Part shown: positions 1,265 to 59,331 of the stretch, one piece after another
How the letters are laid out: the number at the start of each line of letters is the position of its first letter
How positions within the stretch are numbered: the first letter of the stretch is position 1
Sequence record: MK327931.1
DNA: 64,000 nucleotides
From: Escherichia phage vB_EcoM_G17
Reading direction: 5' to 3' (one strand)
Position numbers and translations under genes: made by a program
Notes under the pieces: model-generated
What the model saw: only the letters and a program-made list of their open reading frames with translations
What the model was told of the DNA's origin: nothing
Database searches by the model: none

Positions 1265-1313
1265 GTATATTGGTACATTAACTATTATATCATATTTTTA
1301 TAAGTTGTCCCAC

Positions 1314-11892: not shown

Positions 11893-11913
11893 ATATATTA
11901 AGTTTAAATAAAA

Positions 11914-12600
11914 TTAATTTTCGTAGAAGTTACTATCTGGTAGAGTAGTACTACTAATATTAGTTTGTGCACCAGAAATAGAGGTAGCAGTTGATGGATT
12001 ACCGAAGCCACTAACTTCATCACCGAACGCTTCGCCGTTTGGACCCAATTTAGCACAACCATCTGGTTGAACAGTCATTGAAATAACTTGTGCTTCACTT
12101 GAGGAATAATCCCAATCACCAAAGTTGCTGGATTCAATAAAGCAACCTTGACATACCCAAGTACTCAATGTTCCTTCAAACAAGTTTGTTGTATTTTCAC
12201 TATTAGAACCATCAAGCTCTTGAATCCACATTTCAAATTTAAATTGTGAATCTGTCATGCGAGATTCTTGACTGTAGTAGTTAAATTCTTTACGCATTTG
12301 GTTGTATAGTGCTTTAGCAGAAGCATTACCTACAGAGTCACGGAAAGCAACATCAATTGTATCCCAAGTGTATTTCCCTTTGTAGTGTGCAGAACTGTTG
12401 TAACTATGAACAGTGACGTTTTCATGTGATACAGATACTGCCCCAACTGTATTGGTGTCTAGTGTAATCATATTACCATCATCATTAGTACCAAAACCAA
12501 AGAAAATAACACGAAATTTGTATTTTGCTTTTGGTTGTTTCATAGAGATACGACCACCGCCAGCGAGCGGTACGCCATATCGATCAAGCATTGTAGCCAT
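11914..12600 (-). CDS. tail tube-like protein, paralog 1
   Basis: Directly downstream of sheath; TWDTIDVAFRDSV..ASAKALYNQM resembles tube-protein core; strong AGGAG RBS; terminator follows. Confidence 0.55.
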   Translation of the reverse strand: MATMLDRYGVPLAGGGRISMKQPKAKYKFRVIFFGFGTNDDGNMITLDTNTVGAVSVSHENVTVHSYNSSAHYKGKYTWDTIDVAFRDSVGNASAKALYNQMRKEFNYYSQESRMTDSQFKFEMWIQELDGSNSENTTNLFEGTLSTWVCQGCFIESSNFGDWDYSSSEAQVISMTVQPDGCAKLGPNGEAFGDEVSGFGNPSTATSISGAQTNISSTTLPDSNFYEN

Positions 12601-12961
12601 TTATATTCTCCTATTATGGAATGACATCTTTATATTATTTATCTATCTGGAAGTATATTTTTAATTAACTAAAGTGTCATCAACAGGGAACCAATTAATA
12701 TTAACACAATATAAGTATCTTTTTCGTTTAGTGTGGTCAATATAGTTTACTGATATAGACCATTTTCCATTTGTGTATACTTCGTATTTTTCAATTATAC
12801 CGACAATCTTCTAAATTTTTTAAAAATATATTTAGTATGTGTATTGATTCTAACTGAGTTAAAACTATTTTACTGACATCTTGTATTGTTCTTTTTAGTA
12901 TTTCTTCCATATCCATAATGTCCCTTTATAACATCAATATAAAGGTATTTAATTTTAAACA

Positions 12962-12987
12962 ATAAAAAAGGGAACCAAAAGGTTCCC
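12962..12987 (-). terminator. rho-independent terminator after sheath gene
   Basis: Perfect hairpin GGGAACC-TTTT-GGTTCCC followed by T-run on minus strand. Confidence 0.65.
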
Positions 12988-12995
12988 TTAGTGTT

Positions 12996-15659
12996 TTATT
13001 GAGTTTTTTCGATACGGATTGGTACGTAAATGAAGTTAATACTCTTAGTTGGTTGGATTGCAATATCCATCCAAAGTTCATTACGGTCAATACGCTCTGC
13101 GGTATTGTTACTTTCATCACAAACTACTGCGAAGTTATAAAGACCCTGTTGTTGAACAATTTCAGCCAAGAAACTATTAACTACACCACTAAATTCCTGA
13201 CGAGTACTTGGAGTATTCAAACGGAATAGGAATGGTTCGGAAATAATTTCTAGTTGACGACGAATATAAACAACTAAACGAGCAACGTTAACACGACTTA
13301 GTGCAGAAGTTTGATTAGCAGATAGAGTTTTATCTCCATAAACAAGCAAACCACGGTTAGGACGCATTGCAATTGGGTTAATGTTGTTAGTATACATAAC
13401 GTCACGTTGACCTTGGTTATATACTACTGGTTGATATTCACCTTCGCTGTTGATAAAACCAGTACTTGCAGCGTTTGTTACAACACCACGAGTTGTACCA
13501 GCAGGTGGATACCATACATAACTAACACTATCACTATATGCATATGTACGCATTGCAATAGTACTACCAGGAACTGCAACTTCTTCACCATCAACGTTAG
13601 TACTTAGACACCAACCCATATACTGAGCAGCATAATCATAAGCAGTTGTGCGACCAACTGAACCGTTACTTGGTGCATTGTTAGCATTAGTAGCCCATTG
13701 TTGTACAGCACTACCGTTTCCGGTTGGATTCAAACGTGCTGGAACGTCAGTAACAATAAATGCAGTTTCTTTACGATCAGTGTTTAAAGTTACACATTCA
13801 TCAAGTGTTTCAACGTAACCAGGTACACAAATTAGGTTAAAATCAATAAATTCAGAACGAATGTCATCATTACCAATAATAACAGCAGCTAGTGCTTCAA
13901 CTACTAGTTGACGTTGTGCAGCACGACCAAATAGACCAGCACCATCAAGACTTACACCACTAACAACTTCCCATTGACCATTAACCATTTTCTTAACAAC
14001 ACCTTCAGTGTTACCTAGGTCAACAGCAAGCATACCATTTTGATATAATGCCGCAGCAGGAACTTGGCTTGGGAAATTAAAGTCTTGGAAAATCATACCA
14101 TTTAGTGTACTTTGGTCAGTACTGTCAAGTTTAACCCATTCACCATCAACGTTACGATAGAAATCATAACCATCAATGCCTTGAGACAAAGGACAAACCC
14201 AAATTAAACGGTCAGCCGCTGGTTCATCAACTTGTACATATTTGTTTTCTTCTTGTACTAGATCCCATTCATCATTAGCAACATCAGCAACATACATAGT
14301 TACAGTTAGATTATCGGAGTTCCCGAAATCATACCAGAGAGTTCCTTCTTTTGCTACACTACGTGGTACTGAATAACTAACACGGAAGTTATTAACGTTA
14401 ATTAGAGAGTAGTTGTTACTATCTACAGTTAGTTTTTGTAGTTCAGATTCAGCAAAAATATCATCACCACTTTGTGTGATTTTGAAACTGTAACCTTTTG
14501 TATTGGAAACAACTAAACCACCATTAGTTTCACGTTTAAATTTAAAACCATCGTTAATAATTTCAGCATTTGCATTTAGATTATTGATGATAGTTTGGGT
14601 ATTAATAACACCGCCTTGTGGAACTGCTAGTACTTTAACTGATTTATTCAAATAAACAAAAGTCATATAACTATCAGCACCTGCTTGTTCAATAATAGTT
14701 TCACCAAGTGGCAAAGCAGGAGCACTAATTGTTGTTAGTTTTGCACTTTGAATATAGAAAGAGAAACTCTTACTATCTTCATCAAAACGAGATGCGATAT
14801 AACTATTGTTTAGTACACCACTTTTCGCTTCAATTTCTTGGAATGAATTACCAGTATATGCTGGTACAATATTCCAAACTTGAGTTAGGGATGCATAACG
14901 TTTAATAACAAAACGAGTACCAAAATAGTTTGAACCATTTTGGGTGTAACCATCACGAATCCAAATGTTACCTTTTTCTACAGTTGAGCCAACTGGAACT
15001 TTGTTAATTGGTGATAGATAAGTTTCCATTTGCACTAGCCCAGAAGCAGAACGTTTATACATTAGCATCTGACCATTGCTTGGTTTGTAACGTAGAACTA
15101 AATCATCAACATTTAAACCTACTAGACTTACATCTTCAACTTCTTCAGCACTTACAATAGTTACTGGCTTAAGTTGCCAATCATAAAAACTGCTTGGACT
15201 ATCTTTCTTCGCTACATACGCTTCTACTTGTGATTGTGCGGTATCAAACCACAAAGTACCATTGGATACTGGGCCAGTTGGTGCTTCAGCACTTGGTGCT
15301 AGTTGTGCTAGATCGATATCAGCACGAATTACATATGCACGGTTAGTAATGCCTAGATAAGAATATACTGCATGTAGGCCATATTCGTTTAGTTCATCAC
15401 CTTGAACAACAGAACCGTTATTCATTTGAAAAATTGGTGTACCATAGGTATCAAGTGAACTTTTTTGTGATGTTAGAAGCTGTAGTTTTCCAGCGTTTGC
15501 TTTAGTAGTTCCCGCAGCTATTGCACTGCTTCCTGGGACAAGTTTGTCTTCAGCAGTAGCGATTACAAATAGTGGTACAGTGCCAGGAGCAGCAGCGGTA
15601 CTCATACTTTCATCAGTTACTGAAATGGAAACGCCAGGTGAGAGTAGATCTCCTGCCAT
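12996..15659 (-). CDS. contractile tail sheath protein (T4 gp18 family), 887 aa
   Basis: N-terminal LLSPGVSISVTDES matches gp18 LLSPGIELKETT; C-terminal VVCDESNNTAERIDRNEL..IQPTKSINFI matches gp18 C-terminus; GGAGG RBS. Confidence 0.9.
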   Translation of the reverse strand: MAGDLLSPGVSISVTDESMSTAAAPGTVPLFVIATAEDKLVPGSSAIAAGTTKANAGKLQLLTSQKSSLDTYGTPIFQMNNGSVVQGDELNEYGLHAVYSYLGITNRAYVIRADIDLAQLAPSAEAPTGPVSNGTLWFDTAQSQVEAYVAKKDSPSSFYDWQLKPVTIVSAEEVEDVSLVGLNVDDLVLRYKPSNGQMLMYKRSASGLVQMETYLSPINKVPVGSTVEKGNIWIRDGYTQNGSNYFGTRFVIKRYASLTQVWNIVPAYTGNSFQEIEAKSGVLNNSYIASRFDEDSKSFSFYIQSAKLTTISAPALPLGETIIEQAGADSYMTFVYLNKSVKVLAVPQGGVINTQTIINNLNANAEIINDGFKFKRETNGGLVVSNTKGYSFKITQSGDDIFAESELQKLTVDSNNYSLINVNNFRVSYSVPRSVAKEGTLWYDFGNSDNLTVTMYVADVANDEWDLVQEENKYVQVDEPAADRLIWVCPLSQGIDGYDFYRNVDGEWVKLDSTDQSTLNGMIFQDFNFPSQVPAAALYQNGMLAVDLGNTEGVVKKMVNGQWEVVSGVSLDGAGLFGRAAQRQLVVEALAAVIIGNDDIRSEFIDFNLICVPGYVETLDECVTLNTDRKETAFIVTDVPARLNPTGNGSAVQQWATNANNAPSNGSVGRTTAYDYAAQYMGWCLSTNVDGEEVAVPGSTIAMRTYAYSDSVSYVWYPPAGTTRGVVTNAASTGFINSEGEYQPVVYNQGQRDVMYTNNINPIAMRPNRGLLVYGDKTLSANQTSALSRVNVARLVVYIRRQLEIISEPFLFRLNTPSTRQEFSGVVNSFLAEIVQQQGLYNFAVVCDESNNTAERIDRNELWMDIAIQPTKSINFIYVPIRIEKTQ

Positions 15660-15753
15660 ATTAAATCCTCCAAAAATAATTGGTTATTCGAAATATATTC
15701 GTATAGTCTTATTTATTGAAGGATTTAATTGTCCAGTCCTTATTGTTTATAAT

Positions 15754-16380
15754 TTATGTATTAGAATAAATAATGTCCATTGCTTTTTTATGTAAATCAT
15801 CAATAGTACTGTTATTCTGTACAATTATATCAGGATTGTTTATTCCAATCCAAGCCCACTCAGATTCGTGTACTGATTCAAGTTCAACTGGTTTAATATT
15901 AATATCCCCTTTATTATAAGAGGCAGCCAAACCATACCAATGTGGTAGAACACGTTGAACTTCAATAATAGTCCCATTATTCGATCTAATCATTTTTAAT
16001 TCATTTGGAAAACGGCAATCAGTGATGATGATATTTCCATCTATGTCTTGCATTGATTTTTCTAAACTGAATACCCAAATATCATTATGAAAATACTTAC
16101 GCAAAATATTAGTACCATAATTCTGCAATACCCATCGAGGGGATACATCATTACGACCTAACTTATCACACCAGTACTGATCCGGTTCTTCACGAATCTT
16201 ACGACTTTCCTTAGTTGACCCCTCAAGCATTTCACGGTCCCATCCAAAGATGGCAGAAACTGAATCTTTTAGATTGGTTGCGAATGACATTCGTGTGTAA
16301 CCATTATTAATAAAAGATTCACCAAATGTATCTTTACCACTTCCAATAGTTCCGTTAATTGCAATTATTTGTCTTCCCAT
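15754..16380 (-). CDS. deoxynucleoside monophosphate kinase (T4 gene 1-like)
   Basis: P-loop IAINGTIGSGKDT and ITDCRFPNE matching T4 dNMP kinase motifs. Confidence 0.85.
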   Translation of the reverse strand: MGRQIIAINGTIGSGKDTFGESFINNGYTRMSFATNLKDSVSAIFGWDREMLEGSTKESRKIREEPDQYWCDKLGRNDVSPRWVLQNYGTNILRKYFHNDIWVFSLEKSMQDIDGNIIITDCRFPNELKMIRSNNGTIIEVQRVLPHWYGLAASYNKGDINIKPVELESVHESEWAWIGINNPDIIVQNNSTIDDLHKKAMDIIYSNT

Positions 16381-16398
16381 TATACTACTCCATGTATT

Positions 16399-16668
16399 TT
16401 ATATAATTTCTATTAAATCCTTTCCTACTAAACTTTCAAGTAATCCAAGAATTGACTCATTACCATAATATATAGAAACATAAGTAATAAAAAATGTTTC
16501 CCCATCATCATCACGATATATACTCGCCCATGCATTTATTCGATCTCTACCGATAACATCAATGATTGAATCTTTGATAAATTTCCAGTACTTTTCAGTT
16601 GATTCATAATCAAGCGTTGGTCTACCACAACGATATCTGTTATACGTTACATTTATGTTATTATTCAT
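16399..16668 (-). CDS. hypothetical protein (89 aa)
   Basis: ORF, minus strand. Confidence 0.5.
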   Translation of the reverse strand: MNNNINVTYNRYRCGRPTLDYESTEKYWKFIKDSIIDVIGRDRINAWASIYRDDDGETFFITYVSIYYGNESILGLLESLVGKDLIEII

Positions 16669-16712
16669 GACAAGTTCCTTTAGATTAATATTATCATTAT
16701 ATCACATAATAT

Positions 16713-16737
16713 GAAAAAAGACCCCATATAGGAGTCC
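16713..16737 (-). terminator. terminator-like hairpin with T-run
   Basis: GGACTCCTATATGGGGTC then TTTTTTC on minus strand. Confidence 0.5.
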
Positions 16738-16744
16738 TTTTAAT

Positions 16745-17551
16745 TTAACCAATAATCATACCGAGTGGTTCAGCACCATCTTGATAACGTTTCAAACGCT
16801 CTTTAAGCTGTTCTTGAAGCTGTAAACCTTCATTGCGTAAGGTATCACCATCCATAGAAAACGTTCCCTGTGGTCCAGGAAGCGATGCAAATTTAGCACG
16901 GTTACGACCCAACATAATCATTGCTTCGGATAAAGCCCAATCACGCAACCAAGGATAACTTTGCTGCCTTTGGAACAACAATGGTTCAGGAATATTATGA
17001 TAGACGTGTAATAGTACTTCTTCAGTACCACGAATATCACGATCTATAATTAATTTTTTGGTCATTGGGTTAAATTGAAATATAATATCACGACCAAACA
17101 TACGACCTACCAGTTCTTGGAACTGAAAACTAAAATCATATGTAGTTAGATCATATCCACCAGCATTTCGTGCTGAAGTCAATAAGTAAGTGTTGGTGAA
17201 TGCTAGAGAAAACGGGTCTACTGAGTTCCCACTACCAGAACTTAAGTAACCATTACCATAACGATAAATCTTTTTAACAATTTCAACTTCAGTTGGTAGC
17301 ATATATACAGATTGTGAATCATAAAATTTCATATTTAAAAATGCTTCTTCTTTAGAAGCAGAACTCCACGCTCTGTAATTCGATACCGCATTATCAATTG
17401 CAATTTCTAATTGACCATCAGTAATTTCTACCTCAACGGCCCCAGCACCCAACATTTGAGTGATAACATCTTTCAGTTTTTCACGATGGTCAAAGTTAGG
17501 AGCATCAGGGTTTCCACCCATATAATCGTAAGACATAAAAAAGCACCTCAT
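16745..17551 (-). CDS. hypothetical protein (268 aa), possibly virion or tail associated
   Basis: Long ORF two genes upstream of sheath; followed by terminator. Confidence 0.55.
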   Translation of the reverse strand: MRCFFMSYDYMGGNPDAPNFDHREKLKDVITQMLGAGAVEVEITDGQLEIAIDNAVSNYRAWSSASKEEAFLNMKFYDSQSVYMLPTEVEIVKKIYRYGNGYLSSGSGNSVDPFSLAFTNTYLLTSARNAGGYDLTTYDFSFQFQELVGRMFGRDIIFQFNPMTKKLIIDRDIRGTEEVLLHVYHNIPEPLLFQRQQSYPWLRDWALSEAMIMLGRNRAKFASLPGPQGTFSMDGDTLRNEGLQLQEQLKERLKRYQDGAEPLGMIIG

Positions 17552-17586
17552 TAATGTTTATATACATTATTTAGAGGTGCTAATAG

Positions 17587-17805
17587 TTATTTTGAATTAT
17601 ACAAGCAGTACAGGTATACCAATGGAGTAAAATGTTCGGAATCTATTATATATATTAACTGAGTAACATATATTCCATATAGATCTCGTGATTTATCTCT
17701 GTACATTAACAATGATTTATTTAAGTAAGGATCAACCCAGTACTTAATATCATTGTACTTCAACGTGTTGTTACGGTAACCTGATAGTTTTGAATTTTTA
17801 TTCAA
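17587..17805 (-). CDS. hypothetical protein (72 aa)
   Basis: Short ORF, 8 nt overlap with upstream gene. Confidence 0.4.
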   Translation of the reverse strand: MNKNSKLSGYRNNTLKYNDIKYWVDPYLNKSLLMYRDKSRDLYGIYVTQLIYIIDSEHFTPLVYLYCLYNSK

Positions 17806-18175
17806 TTTTCTTACAATTACTCAGTAAGTGAATGATATCATCAGCAGTGAATGGTCCCAATACCAGAACTTCTTCACCATTACCGAAAATGCTCAATGGC
17901 ACTGATTGTTGACCAGCTAGATATTCAATTTGTTCCAGTTCGAAAATGTCATCAGCAGCATATACTACCTGCTCCATTTCATTATCTTTAATCCATGACT
18001 GCCAATGTTCTTTAAACTTCTTAGCTTCGTATTCTTGAACATAGTTAGGTGATTCAGGGTTGTATTGATGTAACATAGTCATCCCAGCCATTACTAATTC
18101 TTTAGGGGATGGTGTAGAATCTTTCAGTACTACGATAGCTTGGATAGTTTTTACTTTAACGTCATTAGCAGCCAT
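17798..18175 (-). CDS. hypothetical protein (125 aa)
   Basis: ORF, tight spacing. Confidence 0.5.
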   Translation of the reverse strand: MAANDVKVKTIQAIVVLKDSTPSPKELVMAGMTMLHQYNPESPNYVQEYEAKKFKEHWQSWIKDNEMEQVVYAADDIFELEQIEYLAGQQSVPLSIFGNGEEVLVLGPFTADDIIHLLSNCKKIE

Positions 18176-18187
18176 TATATACCTCTA

Positions 18188-18505
18188 TTATAGAATGATT
18201 TTATTCTCAGGAACGAAAACTTTTGGAGTGTTTTCGATTGCTTTAATAGCATCAACATAAGCATCAACTAATGCAGGGTTTGCATCACTAACACTAATAA
18301 TGTTGGATTTATAAAAAATAACATTTTTCTCCATACTAACAAACTCTAGATAATCACGAAGAATGATTTCACCATTTTCGTCAGTCCCTAGTTGTGCTGG
18401 GTAGTTAACTACAACAGCTTCAGCAGAATCGGTTTGAAGAACTGCTAGTACTGGGCCAATGTTATTGATGTTTAGTAGTTTAACGGTCATAGTCATTTTT
18501 GTCAA
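18188..18505 (-). CDS. hypothetical protein (105 aa)
   Basis: ORF, tight spacing. Confidence 0.5.
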   Translation of the reverse strand: MTKMTMTVKLLNINNIGPVLAVLQTDSAEAVVVNYPAQLGTDENGEIILRDYLEFVSMEKNVIFYKSNIISVSDANPALVDAYVDAIKAIENTPKVFVPENKIIL

Positions 18506-18515
18506 GTCCTTTTGT

Positions 18516-18992
18516 TTATTTTAGAATGTATAAGTGTTTTTCTGCATTGACCAGACGGTGATCAATGATTTCTTTGATAACGTTCCAGTTACCGCCGCCC
18601 AAATCGGCTCCAATTTTCGGGAAATGTACATGAACATCTCGATCAACTTTACAAAAATAATTTAGATGTTTGAACACATCGTCAATTGCATCATAACTGA
18701 CATATTTAGCACCGTCATTACCGTACATTTTTTGGGTAATACAGTTTGCAATAATCAAATTATCGTTAATTGCTGAATATGCAATTTGTCCAATTCTAAG
18801 AAATCCCATTTCCTTTTCATATGCTTTATAATCATCATATGCCATTGGGTAGCGATTCCTTAGTTCCTTTGCGAAACCAGAACCCATCTTACCTTGAGCA
18901 TTACATCCGTGAGCAATAATATGTAATGCATTTTGATCATCGGTAACAGTACTGAATAATTCAAACAGATTACCTCGGTGTTCATGAATCAT
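18516..18992 (-). CDS. macro domain protein (ADP-ribose binding or processing)
   Basis: ALHIIAHGCNAQGKMGSGFAKEL and GADLGGG resemble macro-domain phosphate-binding loops. Confidence 0.7.
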   Translation of the reverse strand: MIHEHRGNLFELFSTVTDDQNALHIIAHGCNAQGKMGSGFAKELRNRYPMAYDDYKAYEKEMGFLRIGQIAYSAINDNLIIANCITQKMYGNDGAKYVSYDAIDDVFKHLNYFCKVDRDVHVHFPKIGADLGGGNWNVIKEIIDHRLVNAEKHLYILK

Positions 18993-19041
18993 TATATTCT
19001 CCGAAAAGAAAGGACTCTGTGGTCAGAGTCCTTATTTTAAA

Positions 19042-19299
19042 TTATTCTTCTTCACCGAAACGGATTTTCTTTAATTCTTTTCGATGCTTTCTAGCTATTG
19101 TACTTTTGTGAAGTCTATTACTGCGTTTTGTGTCTTTTGTAATGTACCATGAATCTTCTGGTGCATCATAATCACAAAATCCATCTTCCGTAATTGTTCC
19201 TAAAAATGCAGATTTTTTAGGAATATTAGTTTGAGCTTTAGCCTGAAATTGACCTTTTGCTAATTGTTCACGAAAACTGAGCATAATAGTATCTCCCAA
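19042..19299 (-). CDS. hypothetical basic protein (85 aa)
   Basis: ORF, minus strand. Confidence 0.5.
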   Translation of the reverse strand: MGDTIMLSFREQLAKGQFQAKAQTNIPKKSAFLGTITEDGFCDYDAPEDSWYITKDTKRSNRLHKSTIARKHRKELKKIRFGEEE

Positions 19300-19330
19300 A
19301 TTGTTAAGAAGAACTTTTTGTTCTTCACAT

Positions 19331-19582
19331 TTATTTAGGGTTGCCAGAAACCTTCACATGTTTGATAAATGCCAAAATATCATCTTTACTAAAAGATTTT
19401 ACAATAAATTCTACAGCCGAATCATACTGTTCTTGTTTAGATAGATATTCTTTCATTTTGTTAATTTTAATCTGGGCTTTTTCTTTAGCTATTGAAATAT
19501 CAGGAATTTTAAACTCTACTCCCAACGTATCAGCTAGTTGTTTTGCACGAGATGATACTTTTTCAATATCCATTAGTTCCAA
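19331..19582 (-). CDS. hypothetical protein (83 aa)
   Basis: ORF, minus strand. Confidence 0.5.
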   Translation of the reverse strand: MELMDIEKVSSRAKQLADTLGVEFKIPDISIAKEKAQIKINKMKEYLSKQEQYDSAVEFIVKSFSKDDILAFIKHVKVSGNPK

Positions 19583-19821
19583 CGACCTTCTTTAAGACCT
19601 TCAATAAATCCAGTACAACCACCTGGTACATAAATGTCATTTACGAAAATTTGAGGAACTTGACGAACTGGTTCACCACAAATTTCAGACAGTTTTGAAC
19701 CATCGATACCTTCAGCAACAATATCTACAAACTCCATTTCAAATTTATTTTGTTCACATACAGCTTTTGCAGTGTCGCAAAATTTACAACCAGTCTTGCG
19801 ACCATAAATTTTAACTTTCAT
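19573..19821 (-). CDS. glutaredoxin/thioredoxin-like protein (NrdH/NrdC-like)
   Basis: Redox motif CKFC near N-terminus, ~80 aa, resembles T4 NrdC layout. Confidence 0.7.
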   Translation of the reverse strand: MKVKIYGRKTGCKFCDTAKAVCEQNKFEMEFVDIVAEGIDGSKLSEICGEPVRQVPQIFVNDIYVPGGCTGFIEGLKEGRWN

Positions 19822-19822
19822 G

Positions 19823-20224
19823 TTATTTCCTTCTATTTCTTTGAAAAGCTTTAACAGCTTTAATAATACTGTTACACATTCGTTCAGTCAAATACTTTTG
19901 ACATTCTCGTACATCAATGTACATGAACTTATCCAATTCTGGATGACTCTTACCATATCTATTAGTGTAAGTACTTTTACAAACTAATTCATCTGGTATT
20001 GGTTTGTCTTTGGCAGTATAAAAGAAAAGTACTAACCTTTTTCCCTTTCTATAGGATACATCACCAAGAAACAGAAGATCATCTTCATCGATTTCGTATC
20101 CTGTCTCTTCGAAACATTCACGTACAGCAGCTTCTTTGAAAGTTTCATTACCCTCAGCTTTCCCTTTAGGTAAATCCCAATGATTCTGTCCGTGTTGTAT
20201 GTCCGATAAGTATCTGACCATCAC
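19823..20224 (-). CDS. Nudix hydrolase
   Basis: Nudix box GKAEGNETFKEAAVRECFEETG; GTG/ATG start; short N-terminus. Confidence 0.75.
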   Translation of the reverse strand: MMVRYLSDIQHGQNHWDLPKGKAEGNETFKEAAVRECFEETGYEIDEDDLLFLGDVSYRKGKRLVLFFYTAKDKPIPDELVCKSTYTNRYGKSHPELDKFMYIDVRECQKYLTERMCNSIIKAVKAFQRNRRK

Positions 20225-20296
20225 GATAAAATATTATACCACAACTATAACGCATATCTTATCTCTTTGTCATCAATCGATGTTCAGATACTAATA

Positions 20297-20324
20297 ATTA
20301 TATCAGTTATTGGTTTTTTGTCCC
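20297..20324 (-). promoter_or_regulatory. sigma70-type promoter GGGACA-16-TATAAT
   Basis: Minus strand GGGACAAAAAACCAATAACTGATATAAT between CCA gene and Nudix gene. Confidence 0.45.
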
Positions 20325-20331
20325 ACTATTT

Positions 20332-21444
20332 TTAGAACATTTGTTTGATTGCTTCGTAACGAAGTTCACAAACAAAATCACGAATTTCTGACGTTTCAAG
20401 TTCACCATCTTTGACCATTTGCTGAATATCAGGCAATTCAACATCAGTATAACGATCATAAACTTTAATAATTAGATCTTCAAGTTCTAAATCAATTTCT
20501 TTTCGCAAAATGAAGTATTCCAAAACTTTATAAAGGAATTCTTCACCTCCGTTATTTTTAATATTCATATCCAATAAAATATTACCCATTTCAATAGGGG
20601 TCTTTTTACGGAATGTTTTGATATCATCACGGAAACGTTTGATATAATTACTAAATTTAACATACTTAACTGGAACTTTAATAGCACCGTTAAGTACTGA
20701 ATCATTATTTACTTCTTCATTTTCAAGAAGAATAGACCACAGAAAATATGGTTTATATACATCAGTACAGTTATCTGAAATATAATCAATAAGGTCTAAA
20801 TTCTTTTTGGTCAAAGATGTATTAAACACCTTTTCGTAATAACCAAATTTACTTAGCGTCTTAAGGAACTTTGAAGGCTTTTCTTCAGAAAATGATTTTT
20901 CGAATTCCACAAAAACACGGTCAGGAACAAGATGATTTAGCTCACCACTATTGACCATTCCAATAGCGAGTTCCTCAGTGCTTTCATGGATAGTAAAGTC
21001 TGAATAACGAGTAGCAAATCGAGCAAGACGTAACACGCGTAATGGATCTTCTTTAAAATGGTCAGAAACATGACGTAGTATCTTGTTCTTGATATCAGCT
21101 TTACCACCGTATGGATCGATGTGAATTTGTAGTACTGGATCATACGCAATTGCATTAATTGTAAGGTCACGGCGATACAAATCTTGTTCTAGTGTTACGC
21201 CTTTTGTATCCACTTCAAAGCCACCATATCCAGTACCAGTTTTACGCTCAGTACGGGCTAATGCGTGTTCATTACCTTCTGGACTTAGATATACTGGGAA
21301 ATCCTTACCTACTTGCTTATAGCCAATACTTTGCAAGTACTTAAGATCAGATTCGGATGCACCAACAATGACATAATCTTTGTCTTTTGCACGGATGCCC
21401 ATTAAACGGTCACGGACGTAACCGCCAACCAAATACTTTTTCAT
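20332..21444 (-). CDS. cca: tRNA nucleotidyltransferase (CCA-adding enzyme/poly(A) polymerase family)
   Basis: N-terminal GGYVRD, DKDYVI and RRDLTINAIAY motifs. Confidence 0.85.
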   Translation of the reverse strand: MKKYLVGGYVRDRLMGIRAKDKDYVIVGASESDLKYLQSIGYKQVGKDFPVYLSPEGNEHALARTERKTGTGYGGFEVDTKGVTLEQDLYRRDLTINAIAYDPVLQIHIDPYGGKADIKNKILRHVSDHFKEDPLRVLRLARFATRYSDFTIHESTEELAIGMVNSGELNHLVPDRVFVEFEKSFSEEKPSKFLKTLSKFGYYEKVFNTSLTKKNLDLIDYISDNCTDVYKPYFLWSILLENEEVNNDSVLNGAIKVPVKYVKFSNYIKRFRDDIKTFRKKTPIEMGNILLDMNIKNNGGEEFLYKVLEYFILRKEIDLELEDLIIKVYDRYTDVELPDIQQMVKDGELETSEIRDFVCELRYEAIKQMF

Positions 21445-21579
21445 GTTATTCCCCCATCAACCAATCACGTAGACGTTCCCAGAAGCCTTTTGGTTGGTAT
21501 TCTGGGTATTCATATTCATCTGTGCCTTGCTCGGAAACACCCCAATCTTCTTCTAACATAGCAATCATAATGCCTCCAA

Positions 21580-22002
21580 TTAAATTAATCTATCACGTAG
21601 ACGGTCGTAATATTTTTTGTGTATAGCTAGTATACACTGATATGCAGAATAGTCAATACCAAATGTATCATCAATGAACATGTACTGATCAAGTGTTTCC
21701 GGTCCATTATCATCAACTGGTAATGTCCCTTCTTTTTTTGATAGTGTGTGCCACATCAACTCACTTTCAATATGGTGAGTTGCGTATGTCAATTCTATCT
21801 TACTTTTTCGTAGTAAAATTAACAATTCATCATTGTCGTCGAGTGCATTACGAAATTTAATACGAACTGTACCCTGGAAATTATTAGTGTACATAACACG
21901 ATGATGATTGTATGAAATCAAACCACGTCTTTCAGTACTGATTTCGTGTTCAGCAAAGTACTTTAACGTTTCATTAAATTTTGGAATTTTAGTAACGTCC
22001 AA
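21580..22002 (-). CDS. hypothetical protein, tandem paralog A (140 aa)
   Basis: Shares YMFIDDTFGIDYSAYQ-type motif with 21989..22405. Confidence 0.5.
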   Translation of the reverse strand: MDVTKIPKFNETLKYFAEHEISTERRGLISYNHHRVMYTNNFQGTVRIKFRNALDDNDELLILLRKSKIELTYATHHIESELMWHTLSKKEGTLPVDDNGPETLDQYMFIDDTFGIDYSAYQCILAIHKKYYDRLRDRLI

Positions 22003-22405
22003 TCACATAATCCTCATAAAGTTCGTATACCCTCATTATACTCTGATATGTATCAAAGTCAATACCAAAGGTATCCTCAATGAACTGATATTGCAAAAAC
22101 TCTTCCTCTGTAGCAGCAATAGGAAGAGTCCCGTTTCGTTGTTCTGTGGATTGAACATCCTCAATATACATCAACACTATACCTTCATCCAGATTTATAT
22201 CTATCATAAAAACATCTTCACTATAAAATATGTTATATGTACGGATGAAGAGATTTCCTGTTCTATCATAACTTGACACGTGTGTTTCATAATACATTTT
22301 ATCTAAACTAAAGAACAAACCTGTACTATCTGGCTTTTTAGTATTTTTTAATTTAATTTCGATAGCATCAATAATAGGTTTAATATCAAACTTTTTCATA
22401 GACAA
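21989..22405 (-). CDS. hypothetical protein, tandem paralog B (138 aa)
   Basis: Shares YQFIEDTFGIDFDTYQ motif with 21580..22002. Confidence 0.5.
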   Translation of the reverse strand: MSMKKFDIKPIIDAIEIKLKNTKKPDSTGLFFSLDKMYYETHVSSYDRTGNLFIRTYNIFYSEDVFMIDINLDEGIVLMYIEDVQSTEQRNGTLPIAATEEEFLQYQFIEDTFGIDFDTYQSIMRVYELYEDYVIGRY

Positions 22406-22581
22406 ATCTCATATCGATTAGTGTTTGGATCATAGCAATAATTATCATTAACTTTAACACCAGGTTTAAGTGTTATTGTTGTTCCTACTTCAGTACTGGG
22501 TTCTGCATCACAATAAATCATCACACCAACCCCGACTAGTAAGGATATGATACATATAACTATACATATTGTATATTCCAT
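22396..22581 (-). CDS. small membrane protein (61 aa)
   Basis: Hydrophobic N-terminal segment IVICIISLLVGVGVMIY. Confidence 0.4.
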   Translation of the reverse strand: MEYTICIVICIISLLVGVGVMIYCDAEPSTEVGTTITLKPGVKVNDNYCYDPNTNRYEICL

Positions 22582-22594
22582 ACATTTATCTCCA

Positions 22595-22990
22595 TTATAA
22601 AAAGCAATTATACAGTTTATTGTACAATATAAAAAGGTCTTTCACATTATCATAAGTAATATCAGATACATCATGAATTAATGATAACTGAAAAAATGAA
22701 GCTTCGTCTATTTCTGCTGGAATTATAACATCACCATCTTCTTCGTCCATTTTATTGGTGTAGTATTTTATGTGATCTACATTCAACTCAATAGAGAACG
22801 CAATGTTGGTTTTTGTATAATCTTCAATTAATCCAATATATTGAGATTTTTCATTAATAAAAAATCCAATCCCAACACAACGGTTATCTGGATATGGATA
22901 GTACCATCTATTAATAACTAGGTGTTCAGGTAAGTCCATATCATGTGTTGATATTAGAGATTTTACAATTTCCATCCAGGAATAATTCAT
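22595..22990 (-). CDS. hypothetical protein (131 aa)
   Basis: ORF, minus strand. Confidence 0.5.
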   Translation of the reverse strand: MNYSWMEIVKSLISTHDMDLPEHLVINRWYYPYPDNRCVGIGFFINEKSQYIGLIEDYTKTNIAFSIELNVDHIKYYTNKMDEEDGDVIIPAEIDEASFFQLSLIHDVSDITYDNVKDLFILYNKLYNCFL

Positions 22991-25257: not shown

Positions 25258-25614
25258 TTATTTCTTGTGTAAAGGTTCATCACTTTCATAATAAATTGTA
25301 TCATTATTTCGCTCTATAGTAAAGCTCTTTTGACACAACTCTTCAGCTAAACCCTTTGCATAGTTTAATACATCTCGGTTGAGATATACTTCTTCTTTTG
25401 GAAAGCGTGGGTACTGAATAATACGAGCACACATCCCACTTTCAAGACCGCCAGTGTAGATATATTCACAGGGAATTAATTGTACACAAAAGCCATGCTT
25501 AAACGCAAATTTTCTTGTGTACTCTCTTGCTGTTTGAATATCACCAGCAATATGGATATTCCAGTACTGTGTCTCCACTGTACCTTTATCGATGTATTTC
25601 ATACTCATCTCCAA
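25258..25614 (-). CDS. hypothetical protein (118 aa)
   Basis: ORF, minus strand. Confidence 0.5.
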   Translation of the reverse strand: MEMSMKYIDKGTVETQYWNIHIAGDIQTAREYTRKFAFKHGFCVQLIPCEYIYTGGLESGMCARIIQYPRFPKEEVYLNRDVLNYAKGLAEELCQKSFTIERNNDTIYYESDEPLHKK

Positions 25615-25631
25615 TTATAGCACTAAAAATC

Positions 25632-26021
25632 TCACTTTCCCAACTCTTCTATGATTCTTTTTATTGAATCATGGTTTTCCAGACATAAAGTACTGAAATT
25701 TCTACCTGTTTTTTCATTTAGTTCGCTGATTTCAAGCATAAGATATCCATATGTAATATCTTGAACCCTACTTCGTTTTACCCTTGAGTACAGCTTGATT
25801 GGTACTGATACACGAGTATTCAAAAAGAATTCTGGCAAATCATAACGATATACCAGGTATTCATTCTTGTAACGTTTACGACTGTACGATTCGAAACACT
25901 GCGGATAACGTCTATCAAACATACTACTTCTTAGTTGAAGTATGATTGGATCTAACTTATGTGAGTAATATTTTTTGATTATTTTATCAAATCTTTTTAC
26001 ATGTCGTTTACGCCATCTCAT
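25632..26021 (-). CDS. hypothetical basic protein (129 aa)
   Basis: ORF; basic N-terminus. Confidence 0.5.
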   Translation of the reverse strand: MRWRKRHVKRFDKIIKKYYSHKLDPIILQLRSSMFDRRYPQCFESYSRKRYKNEYLVYRYDLPEFFLNTRVSVPIKLYSRVKRSRVQDITYGYLMLEISELNEKTGRNFSTLCLENHDSIKRIIEELGK

Positions 26022-30735: not shown

Positions 30736-30873
30736 TCACTTCGTTCTCTCGTAACTCAAGAAGTCACTGCGTTTACTTCGTAAACTAGTTCCTTCTGAAA
30801 ATGATAATGTACTTTAAAAACTTGACGGGATTTGTTGAGGACTATTACATCCCCCCGCAGGGGAATGAAGGTA

Positions 30874-30900
30874 ATAAAAAAGAGACAATTAAGTCTCTCT
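30874..30900 (-). terminator. rho-independent terminator closing the non-coding locus
   Basis: Hairpin AGAGAC-TTAATT-GTCTCT followed by TTTTTTATT on minus strand. Confidence 0.55.
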
Positions 30901-31389
30901 TGACGATGATGGCATCGGATATTATCGAATTGCGAATTTCTCAAATTTTGGACGGATCTTTCTTGTACCAAAATTTAGAGAGCGAAAGCGGGTTGCTCGG
31001 TTTCTCTCTATCGCAGTCATATGCAACGGTCGCTGGTCTTTTCATCAACAGCACTCAGTACTAACTCTATTCGATCAAAGTAGTACTTGTTCTCAAATTT
31101 TGGACGCAACTTTCTTGTAAAAATTGCGTCCGCTATTCTTGAACTCCCTTAGCAAATCTGGTAAGGTGCGAACCTTATACATCTATCTAGGAACTCTCTG
31201 TATGCTTATCGGAGTTCTTTATACAGCCGTGTCGCCGTGATTCGTGGTCTTACATCGTGTTTGTTTGAATGCCAGTACTCTAACAGGTTTCTTCTGCTGT
31301 TCGCTACAACGGTAAAGCTCATCTATCCTTTACATTTTCAAGAGAAGTAGGTTCTCAGTGTCCATTTTTCAATGTCCGTTGTCATTTTC
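30874..31389 (-). ncRNA. candidate structured non-coding transcript (~0.5 kb) between promoter and terminator; function unknown
   Basis: No ORF over 40 codons with credible RBS; GC visibly above flanks; multiple hairpins including CGAAAG tetraloop stem; direct repeat TCTCAAATTTTGGACG at 30946 and 31093; bounded by promoter 31397..31424 and terminator 30874..30900. Confidence 0.3.
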
Positions 31390-31396
31390 TATATAC

Positions 31397-31424
31397 ATTA
31401 TATCATTGGAACATATAATGTCCC
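31397..31424 (-). promoter_or_regulatory. sigma70-type promoter GGGACA-16-TATAAT
   Basis: Minus strand TGGGACATTATATGTTCCAATGATATAATG; near-copy of element at 56614..56642. Confidence 0.5.
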
Positions 31425-34011: not shown

Positions 34012-34043
34012 ATAAAAAAAGAGAACTCCATATGAAGTTCTCT
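34012..34043 (-). terminator. rho-independent terminator after large depolymerase-like gene
   Basis: Hairpin AGAGAACT-TCATATGG-AGTTCTCT followed by TTTTTTTAT on minus strand. Confidence 0.6.
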
Positions 34044-34074
34044 GATTATACATAATTACTTTTTCTATGTCAAG

Positions 34075-40237: not shown

Positions 40238-40804
40238 TTAGTATAAATCAGTAATGTCTTTGTATGCATTAATCTGTTTTTGTTGTAATGAAAGTTCATT
40301 GAGTTTAGTTACCATTTTATCTACACCAACACGTGTATAGAAAATAATAAATGAATCTAAATTGCCTAGAGTAATTCTTGAACTGAAATTTGAAAGTTTT
40401 CTTGCATAAACATAAATTTCTTCTTCACTTGGTAAACGTTTCTCAATCGGCCAGCTTTCCACACCATTCGGCTCATAATCGATTTCAAATTCAACTCCCA
40501 TCACTGTGTCTTGAATGAGATCCGTATATGAACCACCGTAAAAATACTCTCTTGGTTTGGCTCTCCAACGAGGACTAAATGGGTCAGATGCGTATTCTTT
40601 TACAAATTTGTAAAAGGACATTTTACTGAGCATATACTTCATCTCAATTAGTGCTTTGCGGTCATCATCAGTTTTAAACTCTGCTTTGAGCGATGGACTT
40701 TTACACAGTAACTTAACTAAATTGATGTACATCTTTAATGTACGTTGTTCTTTCATTTCTTTGATTTTGTGACGTTTTGGTGGCGGTAATAAAGATTTGA
40801 CCAT
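40238..40804 (-). CDS. hypothetical protein, tandem paralog 1 of 3
   Basis: Shared motif DDDRKALIEMKYMLSK; AGGAGG RBS. Confidence 0.55.
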   Translation of the reverse strand: MVKSLLPPPKRHKIKEMKEQRTLKMYINLVKLLCKSPSLKAEFKTDDDRKALIEMKYMLSKMSFYKFVKEYASDPFSPRWRAKPREYFYGGSYTDLIQDTVMGVEFEIDYEPNGVESWPIEKRLPSEEEIYVYARKLSNFSSRITLGNLDSFIIFYTRVGVDKMVTKLNELSLQQKQINAYKDITDLY

Positions 40805-56262: not shown

Positions 56263-56290
56263 TAAAAAATCCCTGCCAAAAGACAGGGAC
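56263..56290 (-). terminator. terminator-like hairpin plus T-run
   Basis: GTCCCTGTC-TTTTGG-CAGGGAT then TTTTTTAT on minus strand. Confidence 0.45.
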
Positions 56291-56393: not shown

Positions 56394-56582
56394 TCAAAAA
56401 CCTTTCTGAGCTACTAGTTCACGGTACTGTGCACGAGTTAGTACACCTTGTTTGCGTAGAGCTTGAAGACCGGATAGGGTTTCACTCTTACGTTGTTCGT
56501 ACATACGTTGTTCTTTAGATTGAATAACTTTCTCTTTCTTAACTTTTGCTACTGGTTCTTTTTTCTTAGGTTGTTTAGCCAT
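56394..56582 (-). CDS. small highly basic protein (62 aa)
   Basis: ORF with GGAG RBS; K/R-rich; directly downstream of promoter/palindrome. Confidence 0.5.
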   Translation of the reverse strand: MAKQPKKKEPVAKVKKEKVIQSKEQRMYEQRKSETLSGLQALRKQGVLTRAQYRELVAQKGF

Positions 56583-56613
56583 TTTATATCTCCTTCTGTA
56601 TTATGATAACAAC

Positions 56614-56646
56614 ATTATATCATGTATGGGACATAATGTCCCATAC
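56614..56646 (-). promoter_or_regulatory. sigma70-type promoter GGGACA-17-TATAAT overlapping a 22-bp perfect palindrome
   Basis: Minus strand GTATGGGACATTATGTCCCATACATGATATAATG; palindrome GTATGGGACAT/ATGTCCCATAC. Confidence 0.5.
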
Positions 56647-56650
56647 AATA

Positions 56651-58090
56651 TTACATATTTTCTTCAGCAAATTCTGCAAGTGGTGAACGAACAACACCTT
56701 CTAGTTCGATGACACGACAACCTGCCCAATCTTTAAACTTCTCAGTTACATATGTCAAACCACTGTTAACAGGACTAATAAACTTACTGTCAATCTGACT
56801 CAAGTTACCCATAATTACTACTTTACAGTTTAATCCTGCTCGTGTCAAGATTGTTTTGGCTTGTGCAGGTGTAATGTTTTGGAATTCATCAACTACTAGA
56901 ATAGTGTTGGTGAATGAACGTCCACGTACAAAGTTTAGTGCTTTAAATTGAATAACATTACGTTTCATAATCTCTTCAATACTACCTTGAGGGTTAGCAT
57001 CATCTTTATGAAGAAACTCTAACGCGTCAATTGCGGCTCCACAGAATGGAATCACTTTTTCTGCTTCTGAACCTGGCAAGAAACCAATATCTTCAAACTG
57101 TGAGTCTTGAGTTTTAGAGAAGATGATTCGGTCGTATTTACGTTTTTCCAGTACTAATTCTAATGCAGTCGCAATCGTAATTAGTGTTTTACCAGTACCA
57201 GCAGAACCTAGCAGTACTGTTAGATGTACATCAGGATCGAGAATACTGTTGATGGCGAGTGCTTGTTGGATATTCTTTGCTTTAATATCCCATACTTTAG
57301 CACGTAAAGCTACTGATTGTCCAATATCTTGGAATACCAAAATATCTTCTGGTGTTAGTGTTCCATCATCTTCCTCAATTGCTGATTGACCTTCGTACAC
57401 AAATAATACGTCTGCATCATCATATAGATAATCCCCGATGCATAGATTTTGTGGGAGCAAATGCTCAATCAAGCTTTTGGAAATGTAATGATACAAACGA
57501 CGACCAACTTGTTCGGATTGAATATTAGTATTGGTTAAGTTGCTATATACTTCCCAAAAATTGATTTCCAAATGGTGTTGACCAATGTGAATCAAATCAC
57601 TATCACCAATAACAATATCATGGCGATAATCTTGTACCTCGACACCATAACTTAGTGCTTTGATACGCATGTTGATATCACGAGTTACCAGTACTGATTC
57701 TGTTGCTAAAGCTACCAGAATGATTTTATCATCAGGTACTGTGCTTTTGAGAAGGGTTTGAACTTTCTCTTCTGAACCTTTAGTACGAATTAGTGCTTCA
57801 GCTTCTTCGTTTGTAATAACAAACAATTTGCTATCAGGATTCATATTGGTATGAACATCAGCAATATTAACACCAGTACTACTAATCTCATCATGTGATG
57901 CATCTGCAATAATTGCTTCAATGTTACGAATAGCAACACGAGCATCGCGTGAAACATCTACATTACGACTCTTAATTGAATCCAATTCTTCCAGTACTGT
58001 AAATGGTAGAATGATTGCAGCACCATCAAAAGCAATAGATGCATTAGGGTCAGATAGTAGTACGTTTGTGTCAATTGTATATTTTTTCAT
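56651..58090 (-). CDS. phoH: PIN-domain/PhoH-like ATPase fusion protein
   Basis: N-terminal PIN (IDTNVLL); Walker A LLGSAGTGKT; Walker B VVDEFQN. Confidence 0.85.
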   Translation of the reverse strand: MKKYTIDTNVLLSDPNASIAFDGAAIILPFTVLEELDSIKSRNVDVSRDARVAIRNIEAIIADASHDEISSTGVNIADVHTNMNPDSKLFVITNEEAEALIRTKGSEEKVQTLLKSTVPDDKIILVALATESVLVTRDINMRIKALSYGVEVQDYRHDIVIGDSDLIHIGQHHLEINFWEVYSNLTNTNIQSEQVGRRLYHYISKSLIEHLLPQNLCIGDYLYDDADVLFVYEGQSAIEEDDGTLTPEDILVFQDIGQSVALRAKVWDIKAKNIQQALAINSILDPDVHLTVLLGSAGTGKTLITIATALELVLEKRKYDRIIFSKTQDSQFEDIGFLPGSEAEKVIPFCGAAIDALEFLHKDDANPQGSIEEIMKRNVIQFKALNFVRGRSFTNTILVVDEFQNITPAQAKTILTRAGLNCKVVIMGNLSQIDSKFISPVNSGLTYVTEKFKDWAGCRVIELEGVVRSPLAEFAEENM

Positions 58091-58779: not shown

Positions 58780-59331
58780 CTATAGATAACTAATTAGTAA
58801 GTTTTCTTTTTGAACCAGATACTCCAATTCTTGTTTTGCTGTACCGATGAAGTTCTGTGTCATAAGATTATTATATCCCGCTTCTCGATTTTGTCCCTTA
58901 GAATAACGAGAAATATGACATAAATTTACACCAGCAACTTCTGCACTTGCATGTTTAGCATTAGTGTATCCATCTCTAATGTGTTTCAACTCGTCATAGG
59001 TTACTTCATAGCTAAAACTGTGACTGTTTGCACCTGGGTAAATTTCAAAAGTTTTGAGTGGTCGAAGATGGGAAACAAAAATATTGTAATCCATTTCTTC
59101 TTGAACTTCACGACGCAACGCATCTTCTAGTGAGATATCAGTACTTTCTACGGTTCCACCACATCCACCAAGAAGACCATCCCATCGTAATTGCAGTAAT
59201 ACTAAATTTACTTCTGGTATATCATTCAACTCATAGTTTTTGTAAGGGTTGCATTTTCTTGCAAAGAAATAACAAAATACAAAATTTGCACGTGTGCCAT
59301 ATTCACCAAAGGGAACTTCTTTAACACTCAT
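58780..59331 (-). CDS. Nudix-like hydrolase
   Basis: Nudix-box-like GGCGGTVESTDISLEDALRREVQEEMD. Confidence 0.5.
   Translation of the reverse strand: MSVKEVPFGEYGTRANFVFCYFFARKCNPYKNYELNDIPEVNLVLLQLRWDGLLGGCGGTVESTDISLEDALRREVQEEMDYNIFVSHLRPLKTFEIYPGANSHSFSYEVTYDELKHIRDGYTNAKHASAEVAGVNLCHISRYSKGQNREAGYNNLMTQNFIGTAKQELEYLVQKENLLISYL

Follow-up and report, generated by a model that had tools for sequence, protein, structure and literature searches.

A predicted promoter class of Rak2-like jumbo phages

Pectobacterium phage CBB is predicted to carry a 'divergent RpoD-like' promoter, noted also in Cronobacter phage GAP32, that combines the -35 sequence TGAAACG with a classic -10 sequence (Buttimer et al. 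2017, PMC5259590). This class sits upstream of DNA-synthesis genes, and one of its copies is located just upstream of a gp55-like gene (PMC5259590). Here we describe a predicted promoter of the same type in a 64,000-nucleotide stretch of Escherichia phage vB_EcoM_G17 (sequence record MK327931.1), hereafter called the window, where a GGGACA box occupies the -35 position upstream of TATAAT. At one site this box is embedded in a perfect palindrome that lies between a PhoH-like gene and a gene coding for a basic protein of 62 amino acids (aa). The promoter element is real, and on balance we favor a model where the palindrome carries two overlaid minus-strand signals: the class promoter of the 62-aa gene and an RNA-level hairpin at the end of the PhoH-like transcription unit.

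The two promoter types are linked through the gene for the gp55-like late sigma factor. Its promoter reads TGGGACA-N13-TGCTATAAT in Asteriusvirus phages and TGGAACG-N13-TGGTATAAT in GAP32 and Erwinia phage Kaldavass, and this orthologous TGGAACG promoter in GAP32 identifies the window class with the 'divergent RpoD-like' class of CBB and GAP32. Both are found in Rak2-like phages, and they share the position of the box, a TATAAT -10 sequence, and downstream genes for DNA synthesis and the late sigma factor. The boxes themselves are nearly alike (TGAAACG or TGGAACG in CBB and GAP32, TGGGACA or TGAGACA in Asteriusvirus), although the Asteriusvirus version ends in A rather than G and is richer in G. 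With the GGGACA promoter, Asteriusvirus joins the sister genera for which this class had been predicted, the prediction being bioinformatic in both cases. The publications that we searched on the Asteriusvirus phages Sharanji, phAPEC6, and UE-S1 carry no promoter analysis, and the class is undescribed there.

Two better known promoter types also resemble the window class. Extended -10 promoters for sigma-70, as found in E. coli and among the early and middle promoters of T4, share with it a perfect TGnTATAAT, an intergenic location on the coding strand, and A/T-rich upstream sequence. At 56622..56614, for example, an intergenic TATAAT on the coding strand is preceded by TG at -15/-14. However, the window class has a conserved -35 box other than TTGACA, which classical extended -10 promoters do not need. 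The MotA/AsiA middle promoters of T4 have a sigma-70-type -10 sequence, often with TGn, together with a non-canonical upstream box, and they serve replication genes and gene 55. Here the likeness is in logic only: the MotA box (TGCTTtA) is centred at -30, 11-13 base pairs (bp) from the -10, whereas the window box differs in both sequence and position. We rejected assignment of the class to MotA-dependent middle promoters, as the sequence (a/t)(a/t)(a/t)TGCTT(t/c)A is not present at -30 and TGGGACA ends 16 nucleotides (nt) from TATAAT.

Members of the class in the window and across the genome

The window is 100% identical over the stretches tested to Escherichia phage Sharanji (OR545507.1, 350 kb), a Rak2-like jumbo phage of the genus Asteriusvirus, and 97-99.9% identical to PBECO4, 121Q, and phAPEC6. 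The minus strand carries the genes, with a GC skew that is negative over the whole stretch, and signals are therefore to be read on that strand. Genome-wide counts were made in ECO103 4-12-1 (ECO103 below), an unannotated genome assembled to 350 kb that is near-identical to the window phage.

The composite GGGACA-N16/17-TATAAT occurs five times in the window, always on the minus (coding) strand, versus 0.04 expected. The five sites are at 58897, 56642, 31424, 20324, and 1311, and the coding strand holds 13 GGGACA hexamers in all. The class members and one look-alike are as follows.

56637..56642, minus strand: GGGACA, part of the hairpin's 5' arm and at the same time the -35-position box that belongs to the 62-aa gene's promoter
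56614..56622, minus strand: TGATATAAT, the consensus extended -10 of this promoter; TG[A/C]TATAAT is invariant in all Asteriusvirus relatives
31397..31424, minus strand: second GGGACATTAT site, a (T)GGGACA-N13-TGATATAAT promoter adjoining the stop codon of a 158-aa gene (GGGACA at 31424..31419, TGATATAAT at 31405..31397)
58870..58897, minus strand: class member GGGACA-N16-TATAAT, without TGn, upstream of the gene cluster that ends in the PhoH-like gene
20297..20324, minus strand: class member TGGGACA-N13-TGATATAAT, upstream of NUDIX-like and glutaredoxin-like genes
1284..1311, minus strand: class member TGGGACA-N13-TGATATAAT, directly 3' of a canonical terminator (1323-1348)
25614..25641, minus strand: variant class member TGGGAAA-N13-TGCTATAAT
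12915..12924, minus strand: chance copy of the 10-mer and no promoter; GGGACATTATG is a ribosome-binding site (RBS) and start codon, in the context aaaGGGACATTATGg, immediately after a canonical terminator

The original prediction had reported four copies of the 10-mer GGGACATTAT and proposed a count against a shuffled background. Three copies are exact (12924..12915, 31424..31415, and 56642..56633), all on the minus strand, versus 0.20 expected in shuffles. The two minus-strand recurrences named in addition to the promoter sites fared less well, since the one near 12919 is exact but belongs to the ribosome-binding site listed above, and the one near 15770 matches at merely 9 of 10 positions (atGGACATTATt). 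The 7-mer GGGACAT is not over-represented in the window (7 found versus 5.0 expected). The two promoter-like sites had been placed correctly at 56614..56642 and 31397..31424, and both prove to be on the minus strand. What holds up is GGGACA as the -35-position box of GGGACA/TATAAT promoters, which is enriched, strand-specific, kept in relatives, and replaceable by TTGACA at a given locus.

Comparison at the 31424 site separates the functional parts of this sequence from its chance neighbors. In 121Q, TH47, JNE01, and A4, the site keeps [T/C]GGGA[C/A]A and TG[A/C]TATAAT while 6-10 of the 13 spacer bases differ. The TTAT of the 10-mer and the imperfect palindrome at this site (GGGACAT-TAT-ATGTTCC) are unconserved in the same four phages, whereas the box and the -10 are kept, and we therefore regard both as coincidental. 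The 10-mer was rejected as a functional unit on these grounds and because one of its copies is a ribosome-binding site and another is inexact. At the 56642 site, A4, Turkey5, and RaK2 carry TTGACA in the exact place of GGGACA, which indicates that the two hexamers fill the same functional slot.

Three kinds of hexamer are located 16-17 nt upstream of TATAAT in ECO103: TTGACA (30 sites), aaaaaGTACTTGCA[A/T] (21 sites), and G[G/A]GACA (16 sites). The G[G/A]GACA sites are all on the coding strand and are scattered across the genome. The aaaaaGTACTTGCA[A/T] sites are nearly all in an early region of short open reading frames (ORFs), each with a 5' hairpin after it. A broader consensus for the class, T-G-G/A-G/A-A-C-A followed by 13 nt and TG[A/C]TATAAT, yields about 29-35 sites; over the class as a whole, the box is 13-14 nt away from the extended -10. 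Separately, the 21 early promoters at ECO103 301-320 kb (L014) form near-identical cassettes, aaaaaGTACTTGCA[A/T]-N16-TATAATgttttacat, in which the transcript reaches a GGGGA...TCCCC hairpin after about 12 nt, ahead of the short ORFs of a presumed host-takeover region.

In addition to the window genes listed above, the class serves genes for a gp32-like single-stranded DNA-binding protein (with two tandem promoters), DNA primase, a 5'-3' exonuclease (RNase H-like), a PD-(D/E)XK nuclease, and the gp55-like late sigma factor (phrog_12791, E = 3e-154), as well as four non-coding RNA (ncRNA) paralogs and a tRNA region. This profile suggests a pre-late class, either early or middle in its timing. 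The leader of the late-sigma gene (L117, L118, and ECO103 134586) has a hairpin with a conserved AAGGAT loop, and its stems are fully compensated, with GGTACA/TGTACC in Asteriusvirus versus TAAAAC/GTTTTA in GAP32 and Kaldavass.

Candidate readers of the box

The perfect TGnTATAAT suggests that the -10 part of the promoter is read by the host sigma-70 holoenzyme. A weak contact by sigma region 4 or a phage factor is a possible reader of the upstream box. TGnTATAAT by itself suffices for sigma-70, and another explanation draws on this fact: GGGACA might be merely a weak sigma-70 -35 hexamer that is tolerated at extended -10 promoters and marks no distinct element or class. It matches TTGACA at 4 of 6 positions with the same 16-17 nt spacing, which weighs against our reading, and its replacement by TTGACA at the 56642 locus fits the same explanation. 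However, a dispensable -35 sequence should drift, and T-G-G/A-G/A-A-C-A/G is instead kept across genera at orthologous promoters, namely at the 31424 site in Asteriusvirus, at the late-sigma gene in GAP32 and Kaldavass, and at the ncRNA paralogs in Yersinia, Serratia, and Cronobacter phages. The box is also tightly coupled to TGn: in ECO103, TGnTATAAT accompanies 16 of 19 G[GA]GA[CA]A boxes versus 3 of 48 TTGACA/TTGCAW promoters (Fisher p = 7e-10). We consider the weak-hexamer explanation possible but rather doubtful.

The phage encodes an RpoD-like sigma factor of its own, which was found by phmmer and not by tblastn with sigma-70. This 321-aa protein (the ECO103 minus-strand ORF from 19788, L008) has Pfam sigma regions 2, 3, and 4. 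Relative to sigma-70, WW433/434 is replaced by SS and the changes H455Y and E458V are present, all at residues for melting and reading of the -10 and extended -10. Judged by alignment alone, these changes at W433/W434, H455, and E458 make the phage sigma an unlikely reader of TGnTATAAT. Its region 4.2 carries an insertion plus E585S, R588H, and Q589R. The sigma-70 residues E585, R588, and Q589 contact the upstream half of the -35 hexamer, where GGGACA departs from TTGACA. We regard this correspondence as a lead and not as evidence.

It is also conceivable, if unlikely, that TGGGACA is the site of a phage specificity factor that moves host RNA polymerase off the TTGACA/TACTTGCAA early promoters, with the dyad adding a second layer of control at the 56642 promoter. 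The factor could be an activator of the kind used in T4 middle transcription, which acts on a remodelled sigma-70, or the phage RpoD-like sigma. Its targets may be the replication, late-sigma, and ncRNA genes, and the second layer may be an RNA hairpin, a cruciform, or a protein. If true, this arrangement would define the middle-transcription mechanism of Rak2-like jumbo phages.

The palindrome at the end of the PhoH-like gene

The palindrome and its surroundings comprise the following features.

56623..56647, no strand: perfect palindrome TGTATGGGACAT-T-ATGTCCCATACA, 12+1+12, forming a minus-strand RNA hairpin of about -16 kcal/mol
56651..58090, minus strand: PhoH-like gene with a PIN-like N-terminus, 479 aa (Sharanji_gp480, ybeZ / PhoH-like protein), with its stop TAA at 56653..56651
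56590..56594, minus strand: Shine-Dalgarno AGGAG of the 62-aa gene, read from sequence; annotated as RBS in UE-S1
56394..56582, minus strand: gene for the 62-aa basic protein (Sharanji_gp479; phrog_24119, where no function is assigned)
56269..56290, minus strand: canonical intrinsic terminator GTCCCTGTCttttGGCAGGGAT + TTTTTTAT, which closes the 62-aa unit

A perfect palindrome of 22 bp had been predicted at 56624-56646. It is real, although that interval is 23 bp long (11+1+11), and the perfect arms extend to 12 bp. No inverted repeat in the window ranks higher, and perfect arms of at least 12 with a loop of at most 6 arose in 2 of 30 shuffles. No second copy occurs in the 350-kb genome, even when 5 mismatches in 23 are allowed. 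On the minus strand, the order within the 68-nt gap from the PhoH-like stop to the ATG of the 62-aa gene is PhoH-like TAA, tat-TGTATGGGACAT-t-ATGTCCCATACA-TGATATAAT-gttgttatcataatacaga-AGGAG-atataaa-ATG, and the hairpin starts 3 nt past the stop. The central base of the palindrome (56635, minus strand) is T in Sharanji and in a metagenomic contig (L143) and is A in 121Q and ECO103, as expected from a point mutation or from a flip of the whole palindrome.

Like an intrinsic terminator, the palindrome provides a stable, G+C-containing hairpin just past a stop codon. A U-rich tract (at least 5 U in 8) is absent 3' of the stem, where the tail UGAUAUAAU has 3 U in its first 8 positions, and we therefore do not file the hairpin as an intrinsic terminator. 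The terminator scan of the window does not call it either.

Relatives indicate how such a hairpin might have arisen. Whichever gene follows the PhoH-like gene, the interval between the two contains a stable hairpin (-12 to -17.6 kcal/mol) in every relative examined. In Munch (Salmonella), EJP2 (Escherichia), BF (Serratia), and pEa_SNUABM_12 (Erwinia), a canonical terminator with a T tract occupies the aligned position, and the sites align as TAAT-N5-6-(T/G)GGG...CCC(C)AT. The stems of the relatives differ yet always pair (GGGGCA/TGCCCC, GGGGGAGT/ACTCCCC, and GGGGATAC/GTATCCCC). The PhoH-like-gene terminators of Munch, EJP2, and BF share with the window hairpin their position (5-7 nt past the stop), a GGG...CCC core, and similar stability, whereas the window hairpin is without the T tract and also supplies the -35 box and spacer for the promoter that follows. 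In Munch the junction reads ...TGCCCCATTTCTTTTAAAG-TGATATAAT versus ...GTCCCATACA-TGATATAAT in the window, so that the Munch tail ATTTCTTTTAAAG corresponds to ACA.

The palindrome itself is found in a clade of four lineages, Sharanji/121Q, UE-S1, EC.P1/CMSTMSU, and TH47. UE-S1, EC.P1, and TH47 share its 9-bp core arms GTATGGGAC/GTCCCATAC, and the 9-nt 3' arm GTCCCATAC, which lies in the promoter spacer, a place with no need for conservation, shows 0 changes across the four lineages. In the same clade the loop varies both in its bases and in its length (ATTAT, GTACT, ATTC), and just 12 of the 31 leader positions are identical. TH47 has a single arm change, A to G, and retains a G.U pair on the sense strand. 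A4 and Turkey5, which use TTGACA, lack the palindrome. A different hairpin, of 8 bp, surrounds their -10, and the two phages are distinguished there by two compensatory pair changes (GTGTTCAT/ATGAACAC versus GCGTCCAT/ATGGACGC). In RaK2 the hairpin past the stop codon stands apart from the promoter, which lies further on, has an ordinary TTGACA, and contains no palindrome. To find more diverged PhoH/basic-protein junctions, IMG/VR was scanned with a DNA pattern, and IMG/VR and JGI metagenomes were scanned with protein guidance; just 121Q-like and RaK2-like sequences were returned, which add no covariation power.

The similarity to true terminators could mean that the palindrome is a functionless leftover, in which a small deletion removed the T tract of a terminator, the 5' arm survives as a promoter box, and the 3' arm is too young to have decayed. 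The positional homology with canonical terminators, the replacement of the Munch tail by ACA, the missing U tract, and the small number of related lineages all fit this history. However, the loop, the leader, and the spacer of the 31424 site have diverged as described above while the 3' arm has not, and the one stem change in TH47 preserved pairing. We judge the leftover explanation to be quite unlikely.

The position of the hairpin, the presence of hairpins in all relatives, the constraint within the clade, the distinct A4/Turkey5 hairpin, and the uniqueness of the palindrome argue for selection on pairing. They point to selection at the end of the PhoH-like unit that would act most simply on an RNA hairpin, and not on a sequence-specific protein site. 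The palindrome is real and under constraint, and it is probably best explained as a terminator-derived gene-end hairpin that overlaps the next promoter. In the model that we favor, a GGGG...CCCC stem with a T tract would have been the ancestral intrinsic terminator of the PhoH-like transcription unit. The T tract would have been lost in the Sharanji/121Q/UE-S1/TH47 clade, and this loss would have placed the 5' arm, which is TGGGACA-like today, at -35 relative to the downstream TGATATAAT. The hairpin would still be selected for pairing and act on RNA, probably as a leaky terminator, as a 3' exonuclease barrier for read-through transcripts, or as both. It cannot form in RNA begun at its own promoter.

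Several points weigh against this model. The promoter, its timing, and any termination in Asteriusvirus are predictions, and a hairpin without the defining U tract makes a termination function doubtful. The site of a dimeric repressor would also look exactly like this one, a perfect dyad with 12-bp arms and a 1-nt centre that covers the -35 box and spacer. The 5' arm would be conserved anyway as a promoter box, so only the 3' arm is informative, and in four lineages. Finally, the hairpins of A4 and Turkey5 lie around the -10 and not at the gene end, and thus the description as a gene-end hairpin fits the genus imperfectly.

The stem might instead act in DNA, as a cruciform or intrastrand hairpin that supercoiling extrudes and that tunes the promoter, or in RNA as a site for RNase III or another endonuclease that parts the upstream mRNA from the downstream message. 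Dyads do overlap the promoter in both clades, covering the -35 box and spacer in the window clade and the -10 in A4 and Turkey5, and a few other promoters lie inside inverted repeats (window 1296-1321; ECO103 307208, 319492, and 110759). However, inverted repeats that bracket the -10 are no commoner at predicted promoters than at other TATAAT sites, and a 12-bp stem is short for RNase III. We give these mechanisms little chance. A processing hairpin had been offered as one alternative in the original prediction; its RNA-level action comes closest to the comparative data, and endonuclease processing itself shares the low ranking just given. Inverted repeats around the -10, which inspection by eye had suggested at several sites, were also considered as a general promoter theme and rejected, as stem lengths at 74 predicted promoters are distributed no differently than at 380 other TATAAT sites (p at least 0.07). 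In the window, 1296-1348 contains two back-to-back perfect inverted repeats. The first, at 1323-1348, is the canonical terminator with 12-bp arms. The second, at 1296-1321, is AT-rich and 10 bp long; its 5' arm is formed by the T tract of the terminator, and the GGGACA box of the 1311 promoter makes up its loop.

The 62-aa protein and the operator proposal

The ORF directly downstream of the palindrome is very basic, as had been predicted (12 K and 5 R versus 6 E, pI 10.4). Having its own promoter and its own terminator, the gene appears to be a short unit that is probably strongly expressed. A single-sequence AlphaFold2 (AF2) model of the protein (mean pLDDT 77, moderate confidence) predicts a disordered Lys-rich tail and a two-helix hairpin. 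Neither a helix-turn-helix (HTH) nor a ribbon-helix-helix (RHH) is present in this predicted fold. The SHOCT match of the protein is weak and falls below the cut-off (E = 0.013), and neither PDB nor NCBIfam returned a match. Its identity is 87-94% within Asteriusvirus, A4 and Turkey5 included, and drops to 53% for the RaK2 protein.

The palindrome had been proposed as an operator, possibly for this protein. A dimeric protein, either the 62-aa protein regulating itself or another phage or host regulator, would then block the -35 box and spacer. The proposal has clear attractions: the perfect 12+1+12 dyad lies exactly over these elements, its arms are conserved in four lineages, and the next gene downstream codes for a small, very basic protein. 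Operators of the P22 Arc/Mnt or lambda type likewise combine dyad symmetry over a core promoter with an adjoining gene for a small basic protein. Unlike such operators, the window palindrome is a single copy in 350 kb, is not co-conserved with the protein, shows compensatory changes, and adjoins a gene whose product is modeled, at moderate confidence, without a known sequence-specific DNA-binding fold. The dyad of A4 and Turkey5 differs in sequence and is centred on the -10, and the promoter of RaK2 has no dyad at all. Because its sequence is kept while the supposed operator has changed wholly, the 62-aa protein is unlikely to read the palindrome. The compensatory changes between A4 and Turkey5 argue for selection on pairing and not on a recognition sequence, and the change in TH47 gives a G.T pair that breaks the symmetry of the DNA and would be tolerable in RNA. 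The operator interpretation is not supported, and we consider it very unlikely that a dimeric regulator explains the palindrome.

A candidate family of large structured RNAs

The promoter at 31424 precedes a region that resembles a structured RNA.

30850..31396, minus strand: conserved, ORF-less, structured RNA-like element of about 500 nt, behind the 31424 promoter and closed by a canonical terminator

This element has counterparts of 72-80% identity in jumbo phages of Yersinia, Cronobacter, Erwinia, Serratia, and Pectobacterium, where it is unannotated. It is one of four paralogs per genome, which are 70-74% identical, and the 3' domains of the paralogs are located in the ECO103 segments as follows.

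L010:28406-28560: 3' domain of a paralog
L013:11573-11720: 3' domain of a paralog
L008:18327-18474: 3' domain of a paralog

A pattern scan of IMG/VR found 20 loci (L120-L139), and nearly all copies of the element are preceded by the same promoter type. RNAalifold analysis of an alignment of 18 sequences yields 78 pairs, 42 of which have compensatory double changes, long-range closing helices included. The element has no match in Rfam. Over the whole window, Rfam returned 0 families at the gathering score, and its sole noise hit with E of at most 1 falls in the ncRNA region. No tRNAs were found in the window. Homology to ncRNA001/002 of Pseudomonas phage PA5oct, which were defined by RNA-seq, was considered and rejected, as a covariance model of the 3' domain has no match in PA5oct 7900-22800. 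We regard the element as a candidate member of a new RNA family, large, structured, and so far undescribed, in the Rak2-like jumbo phages.

Other observations in the window

The NUDIX-like gene behind the 20324 promoter (19823-20254, minus strand) looks frameshifted. The reading frame that begins MRYSCGIIFYRDGQILIGHTTR... stops after 29 codons, and the +1 frame goes on as ...GQNHWDLPKGKAEGNETFKEAAVRECFEETGYE..., which could reflect a sequencing error, a pseudogene, or a programmed shift. At 34020-34050 (minus strand), TTGACA-N17-TATAAT is followed at once by the terminator hairpin AGAGAACTtcatatggAGTTCTCT and TTTTTTT. This arrangement would produce either a very short transcript or a terminator of the upstream gene that is sited past the -10 of the next promoter. 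A perfect, loopless, 20-bp AT-rich palindrome, CTTTTACAAATTTGTAAAAG, is located at 40597-40616.

Implications

The palindrome illustrates how, as intergenic space becomes smaller, a terminator stem may be put to use as a promoter box, an outcome that is tidy and unsurprising in a compact phage genome. The promoter analysis provides the first explicit definition of a pre-late promoter class for Asteriusvirus jumbo phages, a group that includes PBECO4, 121Q, and Sharanji and has several members proposed for therapy, and it links this class to the one predicted in CBB and GAP32. The class can be used to annotate transcription units and to find unannotated RNA genes, one of which surfaced here. 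It can also be used to study how these phages, without an RNA polymerase of their own, reprogramme the host enzyme.

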